From the NCBI GenBank assembly GCA_050260455.1, contig JBLNCF010000012.1, positions 58,236 to 122,235 on the forward strand: DNA of 64,000 nucleotides. Direction: 5' to 3'. Position numbers and translations under genes: made by a program. Below, piece after piece: positions 9,950-20,604 of the stretch. Below the pieces are notes generated by a model, which made no database searches, was not told the DNA's origin, and was given only the letters and a program-made list of their open reading frames with translations. The DNA comes from Bacillota bacterium. Its GTDB lineage: Bacteria > Patescibacteriota > Minisyncoccia > Phycocordibacterales > Phycocordibacteraceae. Each line of letters starts with the position of its first letter. Positions within the stretch are counted from its first letter, which is position 1.

Positions 9950-10651
9950 ATGAGGACCCACCGCGAACTTCACACCGCTCCGATTGCGGGCAAGCTGAAT
10001 TGGCTGCGTGCGGCGGTGCTGGGTGCAAACGATGGCATCGTCTCACTTGCTGCACTTGTAGTTGGAGTTGCCGGAGCATCCGTCCCGTCAGGAGTGATAT
10101 TTGTGACGGGTATCGCGGGGCTTCTGGCAGGTGCCTTTTCCATGGCGGTGGGTGAGTACGTATCGGTGAGTAGCCAACGCGATGCCGAACGAGCGCTGCT
10201 CGATAAGGAACGCTACGAGCTTGAGCACTATGCCGGACCCGAACTCGATGAACTCACCTCCCTCTACGAAAAGAAAGGACTTAATCCTGGCACGGCGCGT
10301 ACTGTGGCCGAAGAACTCACTGCCCATGATGTCTTTGCAGCGCACGCGGAAGCTGAGCTTGGTATTAACCCTAAAGAACTCACGAATCCGTGGCATGCTG
10401 CCGGCGCGTCAGCGGCTGCGTTTACGGTAGGTGCCCTTATTCCGCTCCTCGCAATACTCATTCCGCCCGCGCCGCTTCGCATACCGGTCACATTCGCCGC
10501 AGTGCTCGTAGCTCTTACAATTACTGGGGTAGTAAGCGCGCGTGCCACCGGGGTAAAAACCATACCCGCAACACTTCGGGTACTTATCGGTGGTATCCTT
10601 GCGATGGCCATCACCTTCCTGATTGGGCGGCTGTTTGAAGGAGCGGCATAA
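9950..10651 (+). CDS. VIT1/CCC1-family iron/manganese transporter
   Basis: LRAAVLGANDGIVS and GEYVSVSSQRD signatures; five TMs; stop 3 nt before the sigma factor gene. Confidence 0.8.
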   Translation: MRTHRELHTAPIAGKLNWLRAAVLGANDGIVSLAALVVGVAGASVPSGVIFVTGIAGLLAGAFSMAVGEYVSVSSQRDAERALLDKERYELEHYAGPELDELTSLYEKKGLNPGTARTVAEELTAHDVFAAHAEAELGINPKELTNPWHAAGASAAAFTVGALIPLLAILIPPAPLRIPVTFAAVLVALTITGVVSARATGVKTIPATLRVLIGGILAMAITFLIGRLFEGAA

Positions 10652-10653
10652 GC

Positions 10654-11217
10654 ATGGAAACAGACGAGTCGCTTGCTAGTCGGGTTCAGCAGGGAGACGA
10701 TCAGGCGCTCGGGGAACTCATAGAACGTTACGAAAAGAAACTATTACGGTACGGTTCTCGTTTCTTGGGGAGTCAGGGAGAAGATGCAGTTGTACAAGCG
10801 GTCCAGGACATTTTCATTCGGGTTTATCAGAACATTGCATCATTCGATACGCGTCAACGGTTTTCGCCCTGGATTTATCGGGTTGCACACAATACCTTTG
10901 TGAGCATTCTTCGCCAACGGACGCGTCAACCCGTGTACGGTATTGATTTCGATAGCTTCTTTCCGCATCCGGTACATGAAGATTCCGAGCGCCGAGAGAA
11001 AGAACATGCAGAAATCCGCGTAGTAGTAGAGGCGGCACTCTCCTCCTTGTCTGCCGCACATCGTGAAATTATCGTCCTATACTATTTTGAGGAACTCTCG
11101 TATCAGGAAATCGCCGATGTGCTCCGTATCCCGGTCAGCACGGTAGGGGTGCGGCTATCGCGCGCTCGTGAACGGCTGAAGCGAATCCTTCCCGAGAGTT
11201 CTGAACTGCCCCTATGA
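10654..11217 (+). CDS. ECF-type RNA polymerase sigma-70 factor
   Basis: Sigma region 2 (IFIRVYQNIASFD...FSPWIYRVAHN) and region 4 (YYFEELSYQEIADVLRIPVSTVGVRLSRARERL). Confidence 0.85.
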   Translation: METDESLASRVQQGDDQALGELIERYEKKLLRYGSRFLGSQGEDAVVQAVQDIFIRVYQNIASFDTRQRFSPWIYRVAHNTFVSILRQRTRQPVYGIDFDSFFPHPVHEDSERREKEHAEIRVVVEAALSSLSAAHREIIVLYYFEELSYQEIADVLRIPVSTVGVRLSRARERLKRILPESSELPL

Positions 11218-11927
11218 CGGACCACCCCAACAATTCGATACGAAGTACCGTACTTGAAAAGATACGGGAGGGGACGGTGCGTCGCCGACCGCGCGCGTAT
11301 TTTGTGGCGCGCATCGTAGCAACCGTGCTGGTAGCTATACTCCTCCTTGCCACGTCGGGGGTCGTCATTAGTTTCATTCTTTTCAGCTTGCATGAGAGCG
11401 GTGAACAGTTCTTGCTCGGGTTCGGTACCCGGGGAGTGCTCACATTCCTCACACTCTTTCCGTGGACCTGGGGAGTAGGTGCTGTGTTCCTCATCATCAT
11501 CCTCGATTGGCTCATACGTGGATTTCGGTTTGCGTATCGCATACCGCTCATGCCTATCTTCCTTGGCACTGTCGTGGCTAGCGTAATTCTCGGCATCGTA
11601 TTAAACCTCACACCGCTACACGCCACGCTTCTTCGGGAGGCGCATGAGCGTCAACTACCCGTTGTTGAAGATGTGTACGGCCATATATTTGATTCACACG
11701 AGCGGAAGGGAGTGTATCGCGGCTCCGTGATTTCTGTAGCGACAAGCACCTTCACACTTCAACACAATGATTGGGATCATGATCCCGATGACGGCATATT
11801 CACCATATTTGTGTCCCCGGAGAGCGGCATCCTGTTGCCACGTGTTGGAGACAAGGTGTTTGTTCTAGGAACGCTCGAAGAGGGGGTGATAGAAGCAAAG
11901 AACATCCAGATTTTCACATCTCGGTGA
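11214..11927 (+). CDS. putative membrane anti-sigma factor
   Basis: ATGA overlap with the sigma factor stop; cytoplasmic N-term, three TMs, extracytoplasmic C-term; call rests on position and topology only. Confidence 0.45.
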   Translation: MTDHPNNSIRSTVLEKIREGTVRRRPRAYFVARIVATVLVAILLLATSGVVISFILFSLHESGEQFLLGFGTRGVLTFLTLFPWTWGVGAVFLIIILDWLIRGFRFAYRIPLMPIFLGTVVASVILGIVLNLTPLHATLLREAHERQLPVVEDVYGHIFDSHERKGVYRGSVISVATSTFTLQHNDWDHDPDDGIFTIFVSPESGILLPRVGDKVFVLGTLEEGVIEAKNIQIFTSR

Positions 11928-11978: not shown

Positions 11979-12527
11979 ATGAAGAAATTCATCATCTCCG
12001 CTCTGTTTTTGCTTGGATTTGGATCGTATGCGATTTATAACCACACATCAGCCAAGCAGGCGAATGGCCTTGGTGTCGATGTAGCAACCACCACTTCGCT
12101 TGCTGTCGTGCCAACGGAAACCGACTCGACCTCTGCCGCTCCATCGAAACCCGTATCAAGCGCTCAACCACCAACGCGGCCGGTGACGAAGCCGTCAGCT
12201 CCGACTCCTGCACCTGTTCCAGAAACTCCGCGTCCTACGGGGAAGTATGTGGATGGCGTATATACGGGGAATGCGGCAGATGCGTATTACGGATATGTGC
12301 AAGTGCGCGCCACCATTTCGGGAGGTAAGTTGACGAATATTGCATTCCTGCAGTATCCAAATGACCGTCAGACTTCCGTCTATATTAGCCAGCAGGCTCT
12401 TCCGATGCTTCGTACCGAGGCGATAGAAGCTCAGAGCGCGAACGTCGATGGTGTCTCCGGTGCCTCGGATACCAGCCAAGCATTCGTCGAGTCACTCGGT
12501 TCTGCACTTGCTCAAGCCAAGGCATAG
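11979..12527 (+). CDS. secreted or anchored FMN-binding domain protein, likely ApbE substrate
   Basis: Signal/anchor MKKFIISALFLLGFGSYAIY; Pro/Thr linker; FMN_bind-like domain with flavinylation-type motif DGVSGASDTS. Confidence 0.7.
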   Translation: MKKFIISALFLLGFGSYAIYNHTSAKQANGLGVDVATTTSLAVVPTETDSTSAAPSKPVSSAQPPTRPVTKPSAPTPAPVPETPRPTGKYVDGVYTGNAADAYYGYVQVRATISGGKLTNIAFLQYPNDRQTSVYISQQALPMLRTEAIEAQSANVDGVSGASDTSQAFVESLGSALAQAKA

Positions 12528-12531
12528 CGGT

Positions 12532-13275
12532 ATGCGCGAAACACGCTCAATTATGGGCATGCCGGTGGTGCTTGAGATTGTAGGAGGAGCTCCTTCTTCG
12601 GAGTATGACGGAGTTTTCTCTTTCCTTCGAGAGGTGGATGAGCGCTTTAGTACCTATAAGGAGGGTAGTGAAGTGTCGCGGATCAATCGAGGAGAAATTG
12701 AACCGGATGCCTATAGCTCCGAACTTACAGAAATACTTGAACGGGCTGAAGAAACGAAACGCATAACAGGCGGATACTTTGATGTATATACACCTGATGG
12801 AACACTCGATCCTTCTGGACTGGTGAAAGGATGGGCAATCCAGCGTGCGGCCGAACTCCTACGCAGTCGTGGACTCGATCAATTCTATTTAGAGATTGCT
12901 GGAGATATCCAGACGAGCGGCATGAATCGCGATGGAAAAGAATGGAGTATTGGCATTCGTAATCCATTCGCATCCGAGGAGGTGGTGAAGGTGGTGTATC
13001 CGCATGGCAGGGGTGTCGCCACCTCGGGTACCTATGTACGAGGCGCACATATTTATGATCCGCATGCGGGCACGACCGCATCTGATGCGTTCGTGAGCCT
13101 CACCGTGATCGGTCCTAACGTATATGAGGCAGATAGGTTGGCGACGGCCGCATTTGCCATGGGTGAGCGGGGTATCGAATTCCTCGAGCGGTTCGGGGGA
13201 TGCGAAGCATACGCCATTACTCCCTCCGGCACCGCTGTTATGACGAGCGGATTTGAAGCATACACTTCTCTATGA
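12532..13275 (+). CDS. apbE: FAD:protein FMN transferase (ApbE family)
   Basis: Start MRETRSIMGMPV 4 nt after the previous stop (track ORF 12448 begins inside the upstream gene); ApbE-like GGYFDVYTPDG, WSIGIRNP, TSGTY. Confidence 0.8.
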   Translation: MRETRSIMGMPVVLEIVGGAPSSEYDGVFSFLREVDERFSTYKEGSEVSRINRGEIEPDAYSSELTEILERAEETKRITGGYFDVYTPDGTLDPSGLVKGWAIQRAAELLRSRGLDQFYLEIAGDIQTSGMNRDGKEWSIGIRNPFASEEVVKVVYPHGRGVATSGTYVRGAHIYDPHAGTTASDAFVSLTVIGPNVYEADRLATAAFAMGERGIEFLERFGGCEAYAITPSGTAVMTSGFEAYTSL

Positions 13276-14771
13276 TGCGCTTCATTGACTCGATCCTGAA
13301 CCGGATAACGATGTACCGGCTCGTGTTGTATGAACTGCTGATGCTTCTCGGTGTAGCTGTCCTGTTCGGTGCATTCCATTTCCTGCCGTACAGTCCGCTG
13401 TACATTGCGTATTCTGCGATTCTTATATTCGCAGTGACCTGGATCACCAATGAGATCTTCGCACTTGCATTCGATGCGCCTTCAAATCCAGAGTCCACCT
13501 ACATCACGGCGCTCATTCTCGCGCTCATCATCTCGCCGCCGCAAGCGTTCTGGGATCCGCACTATTTCATGCTTGCAGGCTGGGCTGCAGCACTTGCCGC
13601 TGCTTCCAAATATATTTTTGCGATACGTCACAAGCATCTCTTTAATCCAGCGGCGTTTGGTGTCGCCCTTCCGGCGCTTACGCTCGGCGTGGGTGCAAGT
13701 TGGTGGGTAGGTACGCTTTCTATGCTGCCGTTCGTAACTGTCGGGGGCTTCCTCGTCGCACGAAAGATACGGCGTCTTGACCTCGTACTTGCTTTCGGGG
13801 CATCGGTCGTGGTGACCATTCTGTTTTTGAGTGCGGGAGAAGGTTCTGGTGCACTGCATATTGTGAAGCAGGCGCTCCTGTATTCTCCGGCGGTGTTCTT
13901 GGGTACGGTCATGCTTACCGAACCACTCACTATGCCACCAGGGCGTTTTAACCGGGTGTGGTATGCGGTTCTGGTAGGATTCCTCTTTGCGCCTGAAGTG
14001 CACATTGGCACGTTCTATTTCACTCCCGAACTCGCATTGCTTGCAGGAAATATCGTTGCATACGTGATGAGTCCAAAAGGGAAGCATACCCTTACCCTCG
14101 TCGACCGCGTTCGCACTTCTTCGGGCACCTATGAGTTCGTATTTCAACCCGATGAGCATTTCGCATTCTCTGCGGGCCAGTATCTCGAGTGGACGCTCCC
14201 GCACCAACACGCGGATAGTCGTGGTATCCGTCGATACTTCACCATTGCCTCTGCTCCGTCTGACCCTTTTATACGGCTCGGCGTTAAATTCTATGATCCG
14301 ATGAGTACCTACAAAGGGCGATTACTCGCCATGAAGAAGGGTGACATTATCATTGCTTCGCAGGTGGCAGGAGATTTCGTTCTTCCATCCGATTCTGGTC
14401 GCAAGCTAGCGTTCATTGCGGGAGGTATTGGCATTACCCCTTTCCGTAGCATGCTGAACGAGTTGCGCGCCCGGGGTGAAAAGCGCGACATTGTTTTACT
14501 GTATTCCAATCGAAGTCGGCAGGAGACTCCGTATCTTGCCGACCTAGCGGAAGCCGAAAGCGAGCTTGGCATCCAGGTAGTTCCGGTATATACGGATACA
14601 GAAGGCCAACTTACGCCCGCACTCATTGCTCGCTATATACCTGATTACCAAGAACGCTTCTTCTATCTTTCTGGACCTCAAGGAATGGTGACCGGGTTCG
14701 ACCGGATGCTCCGTTCGATCGGTGTCTCCTGGCATCGCATCAAGAAGGACTACTTCCCTGGTTTTGCATAG
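13272..14771 (+). CDS. fusion oxidoreductase: RnfD/NqrB-like membrane domain plus FNR-type FAD/NAD(P)H-binding domain
   Basis: ATGA overlap with apbE; membrane half has HLFNPAAFG and MLTEPLT (compare RnfD NPFNPAM, ILTDPVT) but SPAV where RnfD has SGAT; C-half has RYFTIAS and GGIGITPF. Confidence 0.65.
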   Translation: MMRFIDSILNRITMYRLVLYELLMLLGVAVLFGAFHFLPYSPLYIAYSAILIFAVTWITNEIFALAFDAPSNPESTYITALILALIISPPQAFWDPHYFMLAGWAAALAAASKYIFAIRHKHLFNPAAFGVALPALTLGVGASWWVGTLSMLPFVTVGGFLVARKIRRLDLVLAFGASVVVTILFLSAGEGSGALHIVKQALLYSPAVFLGTVMLTEPLTMPPGRFNRVWYAVLVGFLFAPEVHIGTFYFTPELALLAGNIVAYVMSPKGKHTLTLVDRVRTSSGTYEFVFQPDEHFAFSAGQYLEWTLPHQHADSRGIRRYFTIASAPSDPFIRLGVKFYDPMSTYKGRLLAMKKGDIIIASQVAGDFVLPSDSGRKLAFIAGGIGITPFRSMLNELRARGEKRDIVLLYSNRSRQETPYLADLAEAESELGIQVVPVYTDTEGQLTPALIARYIPDYQERFFYLSGPQGMVTGFDRMLRSIGVSWHRIKKDYFPGFA

Positions 14772-15146: not shown

Positions 15147-15668
15147 ATGGAAGACTCTCGCGGCTTTACGCTTATCGAACTACTCATTGTCATCGCCATC
15201 ATAGGAATCATTTCATCCGTAGTGGTGGCATCACTCGTCCTCACACGGCCCCGTGCACGTGACGCGGAACGGCTTTCAGATCTCCGTCAAATACGCATTG
15301 CACTTTCGTTGTACTACTCGACCTATAAGAAATTTCCGTACTGTCTGTCTGGGTGCACCGGAGCGCTCGACACTACTTCATATATGCCGAATGTACCCAA
15401 GGATCCGAAAACTGGCAGGGATTATAACTATGCCGCGTTAGCTCCTGGTTGTCTGACCTATCATCTCGGAGCACCGCTTGAAGATAAGAGTAACCGTGCT
15501 CTTCTCACTGATTCGGATGCGCCCTCTCAAGCACGCTGTTCTGATCAGAGCAGCTCTGATTTCTCTGGTACGTCCTACTACACTGGGGGTGTGTGCACGG
15601 GATCGACCGGGACTCCGCAGCCTACGACGGCAGGGAATGGTGAGAATTGCTATGATATCGTTCCCTAA
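15147..15668 (+). CDS. type IV pilin / pseudopilin (prepilin N-terminal cleavage/methylation domain)
   Basis: GFTLIELLIVIAIIGI class III signal at the N-terminus. Confidence 0.75.
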   Translation: MEDSRGFTLIELLIVIAIIGIISSVVVASLVLTRPRARDAERLSDLRQIRIALSLYYSTYKKFPYCLSGCTGALDTTSYMPNVPKDPKTGRDYNYAALAPGCLTYHLGAPLEDKSNRALLTDSDAPSQARCSDQSSSDFSGTSYYTGGVCTGSTGTPQPTTAGNGENCYDIVP

Positions 15669-15671
15669 TAT

Positions 15672-16061
15672 ATGACCCGCACCATCGCCATCATCCTGCT
15701 CGTTCTCGCGCTCATTGGCGCATTGATCTGGATATCAGAGCGCCAGGAATTCGGTAATGACGCGAAGGCCCCGTCGGTATCTCCTGGCTGCAGAGTGGGG
15801 GAGTGTCCGTTTGAAATCACCGAGGCGGATTCAGGTAAAACATTTACCTATACTGTCACGTCCCGCTTCACGCTCATTCTTGATGAAACGAAGCACCCGC
15901 AGCAGGAGCTTTCCTGTGTGCCTGCAGGTATCTTAGGAAGTATCTCGAACATTCCTGCGGTTTCGCCGCCCTCTTATGCGGCACGGTTTGAAGGAGTTGC
16001 TCCAGGTACCTGTACGTTTTCGGATCGGGATTTTACGGCCACCATTACCATCGTGCCGTAG
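15672..16061 (+). CDS. membrane-anchored hypothetical protein (possibly pilus-associated)
   Basis: N-terminal TM; starts 4 nt after the pilin gene. Confidence 0.4.
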   Translation: MTRTIAIILLVLALIGALIWISERQEFGNDAKAPSVSPGCRVGECPFEITEADSGKTFTYTVTSRFTLILDETKHPQQELSCVPAGILGSISNIPAVSPPSYAARFEGVAPGTCTFSDRDFTATITIVP

Positions 16062-16117
16062 ACGGTTCAGGGAAGCGTCAGATTGCCTAGGTGAGAATGC
16101 AGTGATAGAACCGATAT

Positions 16118-17587
16118 ATGGATTCGAAGAATAAATACCCGATTTTAGGCGGCATCTTGCTCGCCATGTTGCTTGCGGCCATGGATCAGACCATCGTTTC
16201 GACAGCAATGCCGCAGATCGTGCGGGAGCTTAACGGTCTTGAGCACCTCTCTTGGGTGTTCACGGCATACATGCTTGCAAGCACCCTCACCACCCCTATT
16301 TACGGCAAGCTCTCCGACATGTTCGGACGTCGTACGCTCTATATTGTCGCCATCGTCATTTTCCTTGGCGGTTCTATCCTTTCCGGTGCGGCGCACTCGA
16401 TGCTGCAGCTCATTCTCTTCCGCGGGTTGCAGGGTATTGGTGGCGGAGCCATCATGGTGACCTCTTTTGCGCTCATTGCGGATGTCTTTCCGCCTGCAGA
16501 ACGTGGCAAGTACCAAGGCATCATTGGTGCTGCCTTTGGTATCGCTTCCGTGGTGGGCCCGCTTCTTGGTGGATGGATTACCGATAATGTGTCGTGGCGT
16601 TGGGTCTTCTATGTGAATATTCCGCTCGCCATCCTCGCCATTGTCGTCTTGCTTGCCACTTTGCCACGCACCGAGCGTCATCATGACAACGCCAAGATCG
16701 ACTATCTCGGCGCATTCCTGCTCATGACGACGCTCATGCCGTTCCTGTTGGCAATGGTGTGGGGTGGAAGCACCTACGCCTGGGATTCGCGAGAGATACT
16801 CGCGCTCTTCGGTCTCTCGTTCATCTCACTCTTCTTCTTCGTGTGGCGTGAGGAAAGTATTCCGCAGCCCATTCTCTCGCTCCGGCTGTTCGGCACAAAA
16901 GCGTTCAGCCTGTCCGTCATCACTACCTTCCTTACGGCTGCGGGCATGTTCGGTGCGATTGTGTACATTCCGCTCTTTGCGCAGACGGTGCTCCATGCCT
17001 CTGCGACTGATGCAGGTCTTGCACTTACGCCCATGATGATTGGTATTGTGGTGGCCTCGACCACAAGCGGGCAGATTATTTCGCGAACAGGGAAATATCG
17101 GTCACTTCTCATTGGTGCACTCTTCGTAGCCACCGTTGCGATGTTCTTTTTTGCTACGGTCTCGACCGCGACGACATCGTGGGGACTTGCGGTGCGTATG
17201 GTGTTCCTTGGTCTTGGTCTTGGTCCTACCATGTCCGCCTTCACGCTCATTGTGCAGAGCGCCTTTGATGCAAAGCGCACGGGAGAAGTAACCGCCACCA
17301 TTCAAATGTTCCGTTCCATCGGTAGCACCATCGGCACTGCGGCCATGGGCGGCATCATGAACGCAGCGCTTGCCTCGGGTCTCGCTGCTGGCATGACCCA
17401 GCCGGAAGCGTTCACGCACGCTATGGATCGAGTCTTCTTCATTGGAAGCTTCTTCCTTCTCGCTGCGTTTCTTTTGGTCTTCTTTATCCCGCAGATACAA
17501 CTGCGTCGCTCGAACCGTCCGGTACTCGAAGAGATCGGTATCGAGATGGAAGAGGACTTCGCTTCGCCCGTCAGTCCACGGCAGTAG
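16118..17587 (+). CDS. MFS transporter, DHA2 (EmrB/QacA) drug:H+ antiporter family
   Basis: 14 predicted TMs; MFS motif [10 protein letters not shown]. Confidence 0.85.
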
Positions 17588-17623
17588 CTGCTCCTGCGGG
17601 CAGGTAGGGAGTACCATGCAGCT

Positions 17624-17881
17624 ATGAGCTACACGGTATATCTCCTTCAGTGCTCCGACGGTACTTTCTATACCGGCATCACGACGGACGTGGTACGTCG
17701 ACTCAAGGAACATAATGAGTCCTCCAAAGGAGCTGCATACACGAGAACACGTCGGCCGGTACTGCTCGTGTACGAAGAGCCGTGTTCTTCGCGTAGCGAT
17801 GCCTTGAAACGGGAATATGCCATCCGTACGTTACCTCGTGCACAGAAGGAGGAGCTCATGAACGCAACGGCTGGTCGGTAG
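17624..17881 (+). CDS. GIY-YIG nuclease family protein
   Basis: YTVYLLQCSDGTFYTGITTDVVRRLKEHN. Confidence 0.8.
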   Translation: MSYTVYLLQCSDGTFYTGITTDVVRRLKEHNESSKGAAYTRTRRPVLLVYEEPCSSRSDALKREYAIRTLPRAQKEELMNATAGR

Positions 17882-18614
17882 GGCACCAGTAGCTCCATCG
17901 CCCGCGCCGGCCAGTCTTCTCTTTGGTTAGTTTGCCACCACAGTAGGGGCACGTGCCGCGTCCATGAACCTTCAGGTTTTTCCGTAGCACAAACTTCCGG
18001 CGCCATGCGAGGAATTGCTTGGAGAACGCTCGTGTCGTATCCACCAATTCCTCTCGCTGTTTCTTTGTGAGCGCACCTATCTTGGTGCGTGGGTTCTGCC
18101 GGACGATGGAGAGCACTTCGTTTTTGATAATATTCCCGACACCGGCAAAAATGTCCTGATCAAGGAGCACGTCTGCTACTTCCTCGTCGCCTTGTTTCGC
18201 GAGGAGCGCGAGCACTTTCTGTCGATCCCATTTCCGTGAGAGAATATCGATACTGAAATCGTAATCTCCTTTAGCGTTCTTCGATTCGATCGGTTTCACC
18301 GAGCAGTTGAACATGAGCACTTCGCCGTTTTCGAATGAAAAGGAAAGTCGTGGCTCGCGCGCACGGCGATAATCGCCGGTCACGACCACGCCTTCAATCT
18401 CCGCTTCATACGTCCCGAAGAGCATGAAATGGATGCGCACGGCTTCATCGGGGAACTGGAATACCAAATGTTTGCCCCACGAGAATATGTCCGTTACTTC
18501 TTTGCCAACATATCGAGCAGCTCCCACTTTCGTATTGCCGCTCGCTTCACGTACTATCCTGCCGCGAAGCGGACGCATCTGCTCTTCCGCAAGCTTGAGC
18601 GAGGGACCTTCCAT
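17856..18614 (-). CDS. Fpg/Nei-family DNA glycosylase / AP lyase
   Basis: H2TH region and C-terminal zinc finger CPYCGGKL...WCPTDQ; N-terminus MEGP not canonical PELPEVE, so Nei-like rather than classic Fpg. Confidence 0.75.
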   Translation of the reverse strand: MEGPSLKLAEEQMRPLRGRIVREASGNTKVGAARYVGKEVTDIFSWGKHLVFQFPDEAVRIHFMLFGTYEAEIEGVVVTGDYRRAREPRLSFSFENGEVLMFNCSVKPIESKNAKGDYDFSIDILSRKWDRQKVLALLAKQGDEEVADVLLDQDIFAGVGNIIKNEVLSIVRQNPRTKIGALTKKQREELVDTTRAFSKQFLAWRRKFVLRKNLKVHGRGTCPYCGGKLTKEKTGRRGRWSYWCPTDQPLRS

Positions 18615-18654
18615 TAACGGGACGGTACGCTCATTGGCCTGAATCCGGAATGAA

Positions 18655-19995
18655 TCACGAGACCTCGCCTAGATACGGAAGAGAGAAGAGCTTTTTCATG
18701 CCCCGGCCGGAGAAGCGTTGTGGAGCGTTTTTCCGGAGCGACGCCGATGTGCCGTACTCGACATGCTGTTCAGCGTCAGTTTTCTCCACGATCGCTTGCA
18801 TAGAAGAGGCGAGAAAGATCGTATGCCGTCCGAACCGTTCCGAGAGTTCATCCACCTTCTCGAAGATCCGAGCCTTACCTGCGATTTTTGCTGGATCCGT
18901 AAAAAGATCAGGCTGGCGCTCTGCGTGCTCCGCAAGATGTGAAAGGGTTACCCCGGTGGTGCGATATGTTTCGCCCGGCCGCACGAGATCTTTCATGTGG
19001 CGCTCGATGACCGGCAGAATATCAGAGGGAACATTCGTGGGTCGTTCGAGGGTAAGTTCGCACACGCGGTATCGGAATGTTTCTTGGGTTTTCAGGAAGA
19101 ATGAAATACGTCTCGCAGACAATTCAAACCGTCGCGCTTTGGCACAGGCACCCTCGACATTCTTCGATAGTTGCGCGAAGAGAAACACGGGATCTTGCGA
19201 AGCGGGACGGAAAGTACGTGTTTTCTGAATGGACTGGTAGGTCTCCTTGGGATCGGTAACCAACTCATGGACTAGAGTCCCGTTCAACTCCTTCCATATG
19301 TCATGGATAGGTGCGGTTACGCGTTCTTCCACCCACCCTGCGGGCTTCCTCGCGAAATCAAGCGCGCTACGGATACCGAGCGTATTCAAGTAGCGCGCGG
19401 TATTCGGCCCAATACCCCAAATCTTATCGACGGACGTACTTGCCAGGTATCGATCCTTCTCGGACAGCGGGATGGCGGTGAAGCCGTTTGGCTTTCTATA
19501 CTTCGAGCCGACCTTGGCGAGCACTTTCGTGGGTGCGAGACCGACACCGAAGGTGATGTTGAGTTCGCGGGTGAGATCCGCCTGGATGTCACGAGCGATG
19601 GCCTCGTAAGATTTATGGAATTTGCGACGCAGGCCGGTGAGCTCACCGAAGCATTCATCGATACCGTATTCCTCTACGATGGGCGTATAGCGGCGCATGA
19701 TTGCGTACATACGCTCCGAGTAGAGTCCGTAGGTCTCATAATCCGATTCGATAACCACGAGATCGGGACAGATGCGCTTTGCTTCCGCGAGCGACACACC
19801 ACGCTTCACGCCCAACGCTTTAGCTTCATACGTGGCGGCCGATACGATACCGCGTTCGGCACCGGTGGCTACCGGTTTTCCTTTTAGGGCAGGGTTCTTT
19901 GCTACCTCGCAGGCCGCGAAGAAAGAGTCACCATCCACGTGGATGATGGCGCGTGGGTAATAGTAATTCTTTTCCCATCCGACCTCTGTCGGCAT
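18655..19995 (-). CDS. dinB: Y-family DNA polymerase (DinB/UmuC-like)
   Basis: N-terminal IIHVDGDSFFAACE catalytic motif; 446 aa; 4 nt downstream of lexA on the same strand. Confidence 0.85.
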   Translation of the reverse strand: MPTEVGWEKNYYYPRAIIHVDGDSFFAACEVAKNPALKGKPVATGAERGIVSAATYEAKALGVKRGVSLAEAKRICPDLVVIESDYETYGLYSERMYAIMRRYTPIVEEYGIDECFGELTGLRRKFHKSYEAIARDIQADLTRELNITFGVGLAPTKVLAKVGSKYRKPNGFTAIPLSEKDRYLASTSVDKIWGIGPNTARYLNTLGIRSALDFARKPAGWVEERVTAPIHDIWKELNGTLVHELVTDPKETYQSIQKTRTFRPASQDPVFLFAQLSKNVEGACAKARRFELSARRISFFLKTQETFRYRVCELTLERPTNVPSDILPVIERHMKDLVRPGETYRTTGVTLSHLAEHAERQPDLFTDPAKIAGKARIFEKVDELSERFGRHTIFLASSMQAIVEKTDAEQHVEYGTSASLRKNAPQRFSGRGMKKLFSLPYLGEVS

Positions 19996-19999
19996 AGCA

Positions 20000-20566
20000 T
20001 TAGTACTTGCGAACGACGCCCGTCACTACCGCCTCGATATTGAGCGCACCTTTCGGATAGATGGGCTTGAACGCTGCGTTGGCGGGGTCGAGATAGAATC
20101 GATCGCCGCTCTTGCGAAGGTACTTCATCGTGTACTCGCCATCGACCGACGCGATGACTATCTGACCAGGCTTATACGATGCACGACGTTCGACGATAAC
20201 CAGATCGCCCGGGCAGATGCCGGCATCAATCATGCTCTCGCCCTTTACCTTGAGAATGTAGGAGTTCTCCTTGTTTGGAGTGAGGAACTCATCGAAATCC
20301 ATGACATCGAGGAGTTCTTCTTCAGCGGGGGAGGGGAAACCTGCCTCGACCAGACCGAGGAGAGGGACACCTACCAGGGTGCGACCGGGTGCGAGACGTC
20401 CTTGCTTGTCCTTCTTTACGACCCCGTCCTCGACCAGCTTATTGATGAGCTTATAGACGGAGTTCTTTGAAGAAAGACCTGTCGCTTCCATGATCTCCTT
20501 GTAGCCGGGCATGCGCTTATGCCGTTCATAAAAACCGACAATCTTCCGTTTGTAGCTGTCGTACAT
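20000..20566 (-). CDS. lexA: LexA repressor (S24 peptidase)
   Basis: Winged HTH (GYKEIMEATGLSSKNSVYKLINKL), Ala-Gly cleavage-site-like VEAG, Ser/Lys dyad region (GESM...MKY); start moved to MYDSYKR because the track's GTG start at 20596 lies inside the SOS box. Confidence 0.85.
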   Translation of the reverse strand: MYDSYKRKIVGFYERHKRMPGYKEIMEATGLSSKNSVYKLINKLVEDGVVKKDKQGRLAPGRTLVGVPLLGLVEAGFPSPAEEELLDVMDFDEFLTPNKENSYILKVKGESMIDAGICPGDLVIVERRASYKPGQIVIASVDGEYTMKYLRKSGDRFYLDPANAAFKPIYPKGALNIEAVVTGVVRKY

Positions 20567-20573
20567 GCTTACT

Positions 20574-20604
20574 ATGATAGGTGAACTAGGGTTCACCAGT
20601 CAAG
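20574..20604 (-). promoter_or_regulatory. putative lexA promoter TTGACT-N18/19-TATCAT with the SOS box in the spacer
   Basis: Minus strand reads TTGACTGGTGAACCCTAGTTCACCTATCATAGTAAGCATG; -10 ends about 7 nt before the ATG, implying a leaderless or near-leaderless transcript. Confidence 0.45.
20581..20596 (-). promoter_or_regulatory. SOS (Cheo-type LexA) box GTGAAC-TAGG-GTTCAC
   Basis: Perfect GAAC-N4-GTTC palindrome about 17 nt upstream of the lexA ATG. Confidence 0.7.

Follow-up and report, generated by a model that had tools for sequence, protein, structure and literature searches.

An RnfD/NqrB-related membrane domain fused to an NAD(P)H-binding reductase: a further member of the 'Nqr/Rnf-like' systems and probable transmembrane electron exporter

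A membrane domain related to RnfD and NqrB and an NAD(P)H-binding reductase are fused in a single 499-aa protein encoded within the 64-kb stretch of DNA analysed here (the window, 64,000 nucleotides), and the fusion gene together with two neighbour genes constitutes a 'Nqr/Rnf-like' system as described in 2021 and 2024. We consider it probable, at roughly 0.7, that the fusion protein is the membrane subunit of a two-subunit, flavin-only transmembrane electron exporter of this type. The initial annotation had proposed an RnfD-like domain fused to an FNR reductase, and both halves of that proposal are borne out by family profile, hhalign, Foldseek and Pfam/NCBIfam matches. The genes and domains concerned are as follows.

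11979..12527, + strand: FMN_bind subunit, 182 aa (Pfam FMN_bind, E 2.4e-6)
12532..13275, + strand: ApbE-type FAD:protein FMN transferase, 247 aa (Pfam ApbE, E 3e-44)
13272..14771, + strand: fusion gene (open reading frame of 499 aa, confirmed as real)
13272..14084, + strand: RnfD/NqrB-like ten-helix membrane domain, aa 1-271 (profile, hhalign, Foldseek, AF2 model)
14085..14771, + strand: FNR-type FAD/NAD(P)H reductase domain, aa 272-499 (Pfam, NCBIfam, PDB sequence match, Foldseek)

'NQR/RNF-like systems' were defined by the fusion of NqrB/RnfD with PF00175 and comprised 127 clusters (Méheust et al., 2021; PMC8238504). The C-terminal domain scores 38.9 bits against PF00175 (NAD_binding_1; cutoff 22) at aa 381-475. 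In that study, a flavinylation-associated cluster had ApbE, FMN_bind or both no more than five genes away and an export signal on one or more of them; here, ApbE and an FMN_bind protein with an N-terminal signal anchor, assigned by eye rather than with SignalP, lie directly upstream. Relatives of the fusion are now far more numerous, with at least 497 matched stretches in a scan of 185,579 species genomes; Patescibacteria account for 35 of the best 80 among these, and related loci also occur in Chloroflexota, Alphaproteobacteria, Spirochaetota and Microbacteriaceae.

Pfam PF03116 does not match the query, even when the N-terminal domain is scanned alone at E<=10, while homologues at 50-63% identity score 25.9-30.6 bits against its cutoff of 27.7; the search rule of the published studies would miss this member, since the query falls below the PF03116 threshold. 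Profile comparison and fold prediction were therefore used to establish the homology of the N-terminal domain. The family profile matches Azotobacter vinelandii RnfD at E 5e-5, and in hhalign query residues 1-272 match a set of four RnfD sequences with 95.3% probability and E 6.4e-9. Because FNR-family matches swamped the full-length Foldseek search, the N-terminal domain was modelled separately, and RnfD and NqrB proteins take all of the first 15 places among its Foldseek matches (E 3.5e-5 to 3e-3, TM 0.58-0.73). The AF2 model has ten membrane helices (pLDDT 89.7 at full length, 85.5 for the membrane domain alone), and the fusion protein as modelled has the ten-helix 5+5 inverted-repeat fold of RnfD/NqrB.

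The C-terminal half has the characters of an FNR-like module, namely R-x-[YF]-[ST], GGxGxxP and a two-domain fold of beta-barrel plus Rossmann type, in agreement with the earlier view that an NAD(P)H-binding FNR module had been fused on. NAD_binding_1 matches with E 1.5e-9, NCBIfam matches to Hmp, Fre and NqrF cover aa 271-495, and Foldseek returns flavohemoglobin, Fre, NqrF and SpNOX dehydrogenase domains, with fold matches to 4eh1, 5ogx and 8qq1 at rmsd 2.5-3.6 Å. The recognizable motifs are R321-Y-F-T324-I-A-S327, G384-G-I-G-I-T-P-F391, S467-G-P and the C-terminal F495-P-G-F-A; R321-Y-F-T324 and G384-G-I-G-I-T-P390 are invariant in the family. A bound FAD is assumed rather than demonstrated for this domain, because its best single-sequence PDB match is E. 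coli Fre (1qfj, E 7.6e-11), for which flavin is a substrate and not a bound cofactor. The domain may accordingly resemble Fre/LuxG in having no flavin of its own and in passing hydride straight to a flavin of the membrane domain, which would make a chain of two flavins, not three. The NCBIfam matches to NAD(P)H-flavin reductase and LuxG point the same way, as does R-Y-F-T-I-A-S, which resembles the Fre flavin motif RPFSMAS, and PF00970 (FAD_binding_6) is undetected in the query itself. However, homologues do pass the PF00970 cutoff, the strongest NCBIfam match is the FAD-containing flavohemoprotein (E 2.6e-21), and the conserved FPGFA supplies a C-terminal aromatic of the kind typical of bound-flavin enzymes; we regard a two-flavin chain as unlikely and a reductase domain with its own flavin as the preferred arrangement.

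The fusion protein contains neither iron–sulfur nor heme ligands of the types sought: there are no Cys residues and no heme-type His pairs, and H122 is the sole invariant membrane His. With helix boundaries as predicted, the loops on the side of the N- and C-termini carry 12 Lys/Arg and those on the other side carry 0, and the termini of RnfD are cytoplasmic (PMC9588780). The topology is N-in/C-in with the FNR domain in the cytoplasm, and not outside the cell, where its position would have been incompatible with the initial annotation. A cytoplasmic FNR module in the same polypeptide as the RnfD-like domain is also what that annotation had envisaged in assigning hydride input and membrane transfer to one protein.

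The fate of the covalent flavin site in the membrane domain differs from what had been supposed. The initial annotation located the FMN of RnfD/NqrB on the Thr of SGAT just upstream of ILTDPVT and read the SPAV of the fusion protein as its counterpart, with the acceptor Thr replaced by Val. The string on which it relied is present, but SGAT (aa 278-281), in helix VIII, is peculiar to E. coli RsxD, and its position is unconserved: it reads SGGL in A. vinelandii, AGGL in C. tetanomorphum, SGGV in A. woodii and LGGF in V. cholerae NqrB. The covalent site itself, DGISQAT187 in E. coli, aligns with LDGVTTAT153 in C. tetanomorphum, and the flavinylated Thr (T187 and T153, respectively) lies about 95 residues upstream of SGAT in a periplasmic five-helix linker; Thr153 has been identified as the attachment residue and the linker covers residues 140-190 (Vitt et al., 2022; PMC9588780). 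SPAV aligns with G236-G237-L238-M239 of C. tetanomorphum RnfD, away from the acceptor. What stands of the claim is the absence of the acceptor Thr; SPAV is no replacement for SGAT, and the Thr is missing because the linker that carries it is deleted. The segments and residues that bear on this point and on the riboflavin site are listed below.

13644..13646, + strand: Asn125, within KHLFNPAA, the counterpart of Asn124 at the riboflavin site of C. tetanomorphum RnfD (hhalign, invariant columns, Vitt 2022)
13686..13724, + strand: remnant of the five-helix linker, GVGASWWVGTLSM, aa 139-151 (gap against C. tetanomorphum, uniform short spacing)
13881..13931, + strand: helix VIII and TEP motif, YSPAVFLGTVMLTEPLT, aa 204-220, the string cited in the initial annotation (string located; profile/hhalign alignment)
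13920..13922, + strand: Glu217, in place of the strictly conserved RnfD Asp248 of the riboflavin/Na+ site (hhalign alignment; invariant in the family)

In the hhalign alignment, a 32-residue gap in the query stands opposite T153-E185 of C. tetanomorphum. The spacing from NPA to TEP is 78-92 residues in all 175 family members (of 200) in which both motifs were located, against ~120 in C. tetanomorphum RnfD, and the roughly 50-residue periplasmic linker of RnfD/NqrB is cut to about 13 residues family-wide. The canonical ApbE motif, D-x-x-[ST]-x-A-[ST], is absent from 198 of the 200 family members, and its occurrence in the other two is at chance level. The Thr that bears the covalent FMN in RnfD/NqrB (C. 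tetanomorphum T153, E. coli T187, NqrB T236) thus has no counterpart in the fusion protein, and a membrane domain lacking the flavinylation site conserved in NqrB and RnfD has been reported for the Nqr/Rnf-like system (Huang et al., 2024; PMC11334425).

Two other residues were considered as flavinylation sites and rejected. Ser143 in 'GASWW' corresponds in the alignment to 'QMTSW', a conserved stretch that ends helix V of RnfDs, it has neither the upstream Asp nor the Ser/Thr of the ApbE motif, and distant family members have I, E, L, N, G or V there. The T-I-A-S327 stretch of the FNR domain was discarded as an ApbE target, since the R-x-Y-S-x-x-S flavin motif that it represents is universal in the superfamily.

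The residues of the riboflavin site are retained, as judged by alignment: Asn125, invariant in the family, and the likewise invariant Glu217, a putative substitute for the Asp of RnfD. Asn124 and Asp248 of C. tetanomorphum RnfD form the riboflavin site and a proposed Na+ site as well (Vitt et al., 2022). Electron transfer through the RnfD-like domain could on these grounds be coupled to Na+ or H+, so that the protein would act as a small redox-driven pump or an ion-gradient-assisted reductase and not as a passive conduit, given that the E217 carboxylate (equivalent to Asp248), N125 and the TxP motif are invariant and that their Rnf counterparts are proposed to bind Na+ and riboflavin. The gating elements of Rnf, however, are all missing here (the five-helix linker, the occlusion loop and the RnfD FMN), and the outer Na+ site, Asn90 and Glu185, is lost, with Ser/Thr at position 88 and Glu185 within the gap. 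Ion coupling is improbable in our assessment, and a flavin-only exporter remains the favoured reading.

The proposal that the flavin site had moved to the separate secreted FMN_bind protein fits well with the composition of that protein. An N-terminal MKK and hydrophobic signal anchor precede a linker rich in P/T/S (about aa 25-90) and the FMN_bind domain (aa 95-180), whose ApbE motif VDGVSGAS contains the predicted acceptor Ser163 (nt 12465-12467). The domain matches the FMN-binding domain of PDB 8p2a (E 1e-12), with DAVSGAT aligned to DGVSGAS, and [DNS]xx[ST]G[AS][ST] occurs in 47 of 50 partner proteins of related loci. The ApbE protein matches V. cholerae ApbE (6nxi, E 1.3e-26), with its catalytic 'HIIDP' aligned to 'HIYDP'. 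The operon is translationally coupled in the order FMN_bind, ApbE, fusion: ApbE begins 5 nt downstream of where FMN_bind terminates, and in ATGA its stop codon overlaps with the start of the last gene, the fusion. The same order is found in at least 50 of the best 80 related loci, a clustered FMN_bind-like ORF in 69 of the best 80, and the only genes common to related loci are FMN_bind and ApbE.

Compared with canonical periplasmic or lipoprotein ApbEs, the operon ApbE has the fold and the catalytic His motif and lacks an export signal; no hydrophobic leader or signal peptide was found in it or in the ApbEs of about 60 related loci, in every clade examined. Cytoplasmic ApbEs are known, e.g. 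in K. pneumoniae (PMC12052999), and neither Méheust et al. (2021) nor Huang et al. (2024) discuss the leaderless form in their text. A leaderless ApbE fits poorly with flavinylation of an exported domain, and the FMN_bind subunit, its one consistent target, is exported. We tentatively raise the possibility, itself rather doubtful, that the partner is flavinylated in the cytoplasm on an unfolded or nascent chain and then exported with its FMN attached.

The fusion protein might instead be a subunit of a conventional ion-pumping Rnf/Nqr complex with its remaining subunits encoded elsewhere, given the RnfD/NqrB fold and the retention of Asn125 and Glu217, which belong to the proposed Na+ site of Rnf. 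This is very unlikely. No homologues of RsxA/B/C/E/G were found among all ORFs of the 64-kb window (single-sequence phmmer with the E. coli proteins, E<=1, a search of limited sensitivity), the conserved operon in at least 50 loci holds only FMN_bind and ApbE besides the fusion, the covalent FMN loop required for the RnfG-to-RnfD step is absent, and the RnfC-docking N- and C-terminal arms have been exchanged for other sequence, at the C-terminus for the FNR domain; Huang et al. (2024) likewise treat the system as separate and two-subunit. Least probable of all is that the membrane domain is a solute channel of the fold shared with urea and ammonium transporters, with a regulatory or unrelated role for the reductase, since the urea transporters that follow RnfD/NqrB in the Foldseek list match weakly (E>0.2, TM about 0.4, versus E 1e-5 to 1e-3 for RnfD/NqrB) and the tight, widespread linkage to ApbE/FMN_bind and the retained riboflavin-site residues indicate a redox function.

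In the preferred reading of an electron exporter, NAD(P)H would deliver hydride to the flavin of the cytoplasmic FNR domain, from which single electrons would pass to a non-covalent flavin, probably riboflavin, in a cytoplasm-facing pocket of the RnfD-like domain near Asn125 and Glu217. The next carrier would be the covalent FMN at Ser163 of the exported FMN_bind subunit, presumably attached by ApbE. This partner FMN could enter the vacated outward-facing pocket, because RnfD's five-helix linker is missing together with RnfD's own FMN, and then pass electrons on to an acceptor outside, possibly ferric iron. The scheme is anchored in the homology and fold of both domains, the loss of the acceptor loop, the riboflavin-site residues, the lack of Fe–S and heme ligands, the topology, the operon and the partner motif; the identities of the flavins, the direction of electron flow, the docking of the partner, the acceptor and the presence or absence of ion coupling are inferred, and the docking is taken from the AlphaFold-multimer model of Huang et al. 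(2024). The same mechanistic model was proposed in PMC8238504 and PMC11334425.

The system agrees in its essentials with the published NQR/RNF-like systems, which share the N-terminal NqrB/RnfD and C-terminal PF00175 in one protein, the adjacent ApbE gene, the exported FMN_bind subunit, the membrane domain without the flavinylation Thr, an occasional VIT1 neighbour and the same taxa; Ktedonobacteria relatives (L006, L023) at 47-49% identity have the same operon. With RnfD/NqrB it shares the ten-helix inverted 5+5 fold, KH-x-F-NPA including the Asn of the riboflavin site, T(D/E)P, termini located in the cytoplasm and a partner with covalent FMN (here predicted) that is a homologue or analogue of RnfG/NqrC. 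Unlike RnfD/NqrB, it has no five-helix linker or covalent FMN in the membrane protein, Glu for Asp at the riboflavin/Na+ site, no RnfA/E (NqrD/E), RnfB, RnfC or NqrA/F partners and a donor module fused in cis, and its electron flow is presumably one-way outward and not a loop. Ferric reductases of the NOX/FRE type and the bacterial NADPH oxidase (S. pneumoniae SpNOX) follow the same overall logic, in which electrons from NAD(P)H cross the membrane through a membrane domain with a C-terminal cytoplasmic FNR-type dehydrogenase, and their dehydrogenase domains match in Foldseek (8qq1, 8qt6); the membrane domain here is, however, unrelated, with ten helices, predicted to be flavin-based and without bis-His heme sites, and the system needs a separate flavinylated partner. 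In the flavin-based extracellular electron transfer of Listeria (FmnB/PplA/Ndh2/EetAB), an ApbE-family enzyme also flavinylates an exported FMN_bind protein that leads to external acceptors. In Listeria, electrons cross the membrane by way of Ndh2, a quinone and EetA/B, and the exported FmnB is a lipoprotein (PMC9973259); the path proposed here would be quinone-independent and its ApbE is leaderless.

Three further genes lie upstream of the operon.

9950..10651, + strand: VIT1-family iron transporter gene (Pfam VIT1, E 1.3e-67)
10654..11217, + strand: ECF sigma factor (Pfam Sigma70_r2/r4/ECF matches)
11214..11927, + strand: membrane protein gene overlapping the ECF sigma gene, anti-sigma candidate (no family match)

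The sigma factor and the anti-sigma candidate are possible regulators of the operon, a weak link because a similar pair occurs in only one related locus (L044), and a scan for promoters and terminators around the operon gave chance-level results. VIT1 is near the operon in four of the best 80 related loci and in 6 of the 127 published clusters (Méheust et al., 2021). Clustering the neighbours of related loci produced no consistently linked acceptor gene; all that came up, in a scattered way, were two-component systems, ABC/HlyD efflux genes, P-type ATPases and VIT1.

The architecture, the absence of RnfD's flavinylation site (noted together with the docking of the FMN_bind subunit by Huang et al., 2024; mSystems) and the proposed mechanism (Méheust et al., 2021; eLife) are all published, and the 64-kb window adds one more member. 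Two points go beyond the published text, both drawn from sequence comparison: the site is lost by deletion of the five-helix linker and not by a Thr-to-Val change, and the operon ApbE is consistently leaderless. Cytoplasmic flavinylation, if true, would need no export of FAD, and the three genes would then provide a self-contained NAD(P)H electron outlet for organisms, such as Patescibacteria, that have neither quinones nor a respiratory chain. As proposed, the system would connect cytoplasmic NAD(P)H with the cell exterior by a minimal path that is independent of quinones. Patescibacteria, considered to lack respiratory chains, have it very commonly, and it could thus be an important redox outlet or metal-reducing device for them.

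A compact operon of three genes ends with the one for the RnfD/NqrB-like fusion protein; it is set out here with its surroundings in the window.

9950..11927, plus strand: genes for a VIT1 iron transporter, an ECF sigma factor and a membrane protein, directly 5' of the operon
11979..12527, plus strand: FMN_bind gene (Pfam E 2.4e-6), first of the three-gene unit
12532..13275, plus strand: ApbE flavin transferase gene (Pfam E 3e-44), second of the unit
13272..14771, plus strand: fusion gene (499 aa), third and last of the unit
15147..20596: genes 3' of the operon, judged from translations only, except for a pilin motif

The plausible ApbE start is the ATG at 12532, 5 nt past the FMN_bind stop, and the ApbE stop and the fusion-gene start codon overlap. 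The membrane-protein gene upstream has no family match and overlaps the ECF sigma factor gene by 4 nt; its product is a candidate anti-sigma factor, and its C-terminal 'KNIQI' beta-region resembles small proteins adjoining the operon in six CPR loci. The translations of the downstream genes suggest a pilin-like protein of type IV (Pfam recognises its N_methyl motif at E 1.3e-8), an MFS transporter, a small GIY-YIG-like protein and an Fpg/Nei-like glycosylase, and, as neighbours on the minus strand, DinB-like polymerase and LexA-like repressor candidates.

The N-terminal membrane half (residues 1–271) is homologous to RnfD/NqrB, and Pfam returned nothing for it even at E ≤ 10. A 22-member family profile matches A. 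vinelandii RnfD (8ahx_D) at E 5e-5, aligning query residues 155–261 with 222–328 and MLTEPLT with IATDPVT. An hhalign comparison of the family profile with a set of four, E. coli RsxD (NC_000913) and three RnfD sequences rebuilt from PDB alignments, gave 95.3% probability and E 6.4e-9 over query 1–272 and C. tetanomorphum 5–303. With an AF2 model of this domain alone (pLDDT 85.5), the first 15 Foldseek matches are exclusively RnfD/NqrB chains (E 3.5e-5 to 3e-3, TM 0.58–0.73). Homologues at 50–63% identity reach PF03116 at 25.9–30.6 bits (cutoff 27.7). Compared with RnfD, the riboflavin-site residues are retained with Glu for Asp at one position: N125 lies opposite Asn124, and the strictly conserved Asp248 is replaced by Glu217, both N125 and Glu217 being invariant in the family.

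The initial annotation had read SPAV as standing in place of a flavinylated SGAT upstream of ILTDPVT. This assignment fails, as S205-P-A-V208 aligns with G236-G237-L238-M239 of C. tetanomorphum RnfD, which is not the acceptor. The 'SGAT ... ILTDPVT' string is present in E. coli RsxD, where SGAT (residues 278–281) belongs to helix VIII, and the position is not conserved (SGGL in A. vinelandii, AGGL in C. tetanomorphum, SGGV in A. woodii and LGGF in V. cholerae NqrB). Gly237 of C. tetanomorphum RnfD, in helix VIII, contacts the FMN ring (Vitt et al. 2022, PMC9588780). The covalent site by alignment is DGISQAT187 of E. coli, opposite LDGVTTAT153 of C. tetanomorphum; Thr153 is the residue bonded to the FMN phosphate and sits in the 'five-helix linker' (140–190) that caps the FMN pocket (Vitt et al., PMC9588780). 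The fortuitous SGAT of RsxD (locus L001), in helix VIII beside ILTDPVT, mimics the ApbE target motif; it is probably the source of the mis-assignment and could mislead motif-based scans.

The RnfD-like domain does lack an acceptor for covalent flavin, as had been proposed, but through loss of the linker rather than through SPAV. A 32-residue query gap lies opposite T153 to E185 of C. tetanomorphum in the hhalign alignment, and helices V and VI are joined by only ~13 residues (139–151) in the AF2 model. In a family set of 200 members (120 database homologues and 80 genomic loci, 36–66% identity), the spacing from NPA to T(E/D)P is 78–92 residues, mostly 88, in all 175 members with both motifs located, compared with ~120 in C. 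tetanomorphum RnfD. Of the 200, 2 contain a canonical D-x-x-[ST]-x-A-[ST] motif, at scattered positions and no more often than chance would give. Ser143, in 'GASWW', was rejected as a concealed acceptor, since its counterpart in true RnfDs is the conserved 'QMTSW' and distant members do not retain it.

Residues 272–499 form an FNR-type reductase. This half matches Pfam NAD_binding_1 (E 1.5e-9) and, over residues 271–495, several NCBIfam models (flavohemoprotein, Fre, NqrF and BenC among them), all far under equivalog cutoffs; its PDB sequence matches include Fre, GcoB, flavohemoglobins and NqrF. The full-length AF2 model (pLDDT 89.7, pTM 0.83) retrieved flavohemoglobin, Fre, NqrF and SpNOX dehydrogenase domains in Foldseek at rmsd 2.5–4 Å. 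Among 70 homologues there is little or no variation in the flavin motif R321-Y-F-T324-I-A-S327, in the NAD(P)H motif G384-G-I-G-I-T-P-F391 or in the C-terminal F-P-G-F-A. A search of the fusion protein for heme or Fe-S ligands found none: there are no cysteines and H122 is the sole invariant membrane His, which excludes Fe-S clusters and bis-His hemes. Loop Lys/Arg residues, counted from sequence with AF2 helix boundaries, number 12 on the side of the termini and 0 on the opposite side, and RnfD itself has both termini in the cytoplasm. This places the FNR domain inside the cell, as the initial annotation supposed, and not outside, where it would have counted against that annotation.

In the FMN_bind partner, MKK and a hydrophobic anchor are followed by a P/T/S-rich linker and then by a small FMN_bind domain; among PDB entries 8p2a matches it best (E 1e-12), DAVSGAT lying opposite DGVSGAS163. 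The linker ranges from ~30 to >200 residues in related loci, longest in Alphaproteobacteria, which speaks for a long tether more than for fixed docking. The operon's ApbE is compact (247 aa): it can be aligned to the V. cholerae enzyme, with the catalytic HI(I/Y)DP among the matched residues, but is without ~40 residues found there. It has no leader: the fold's first strand (MRETRSIMGMPVV...) is already at its N-terminus, and 5' of its start the frame stays open for only 35 more codons, with no hydrophobic run among them. Across ~60 related loci and the window, no signal peptide or lipobox was found in any clade, and ahead of the fold the highest Kyte-Doolittle mean over 12 residues stays <1.5 in each of the ~60 loci except one, an ORF on the opposite strand that is probably unrelated. 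Cytoplasmic ApbEs are known, and the targets known for them are cytoplasmic too (PMC12052999), whereas here the sole consistent target, FMN_bind, is exported, a combination not addressed in the text of PMC8238504 or PMC11334425. Possibly flavinylation precedes export, a second, exported ApbE is encoded elsewhere in the genome, or the operon's ApbE has another role.

A scan of one genome per species (185,579 species) yielded at least 497 relatives, the best 80 comprising, as classed by record title, 35 Patescibacteria, 11 Alphaproteobacteria (Mesorhizobium, Kaistia and others), 8 Chloroflexota (including Dictyobacter and Ktedonospora), 7 labelled Gammaproteobacteria, 5 Microbacteriaceae/Micrococcales, 4 Spirochaetota and 10 others. 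NCBI attributes the identical protein to a 'Bacillota bacterium' MAG (123-kb contig), yet all of the next-best homologues (≤66% identity) belong to Patescibacteria/Paceibacteria; the source bin may be mislabelled taxonomically. By single-sequence phmmer, at least 50 of these 80 loci show the gene order FMN_bind, ApbE, fusion; FMN_bind-like ORFs cluster in 69, and [DNS]xx[ST]G[AS][ST] is carried by 47 of 50 partner proteins. A histidine kinase and response regulator pair adjoins the operon in ~20 of the 80, immediately 3' of it in Mesorhizobium and Kaistia and immediately 5' in Spirochaetota; MacAB/HlyD-like ABC efflux genes (~12–20), P-type ATPases (7) and VIT1 (4) also flank it. Neighbours vary, and no consistent acceptor gene was found in the flanks of these loci (L002 to L081).

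We favour, at a probability of roughly 0.7, an electron-export model in which NAD(P)H would reduce the FNR flavin, whose electrons would pass to riboflavin in the N125/E217 pocket and on to the FMN on Ser163 of the partner, entering the pocket left open by linker loss, and from there to an external acceptor. The cofactor identities, partner docking, acceptor and any ion coupling are those we infer. In Rnf, the RnfD FMN lies 7.7 Å from riboflavin, and riboflavin 11.7 Å from the first cytoplasmic cluster. Variants are electron transfer coupled to ions, a Fre-like two-flavin chain, a conventional Rnf subunit (no RsxA/B/C/E/G relatives were found in the window) and a solute channel (urea transporters come after RnfD/NqrB in the Foldseek matches of the N-terminal domain, at E >0.2).

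The feature is real and its kind already known. 'NQR/RNF-like systems', flavinylation clusters with a protein combining N-terminal NqrB/RnfD (PF03116) and C-terminal PF00175, were described in 127 clusters, chiefly from Actinobacteria and CPR, with VIT1 in 6 (Méheust et al. 2021, PMC8238504), and the Ktedonobacter racemifer pair has been modelled with AlphaFold-multimer by authors who also state that the membrane domain has lost the flavinylation site conserved in NqrB and RnfD (Huang et al. 2024, PMC11334425); the interpretation first offered for this locus was thus already published, its kind and likely role correctly named and its supporting SGAT/SPAV motif mis-assigned. Our literature search found no experimental study of the fusion family. 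The system is common in Patescibacteria.
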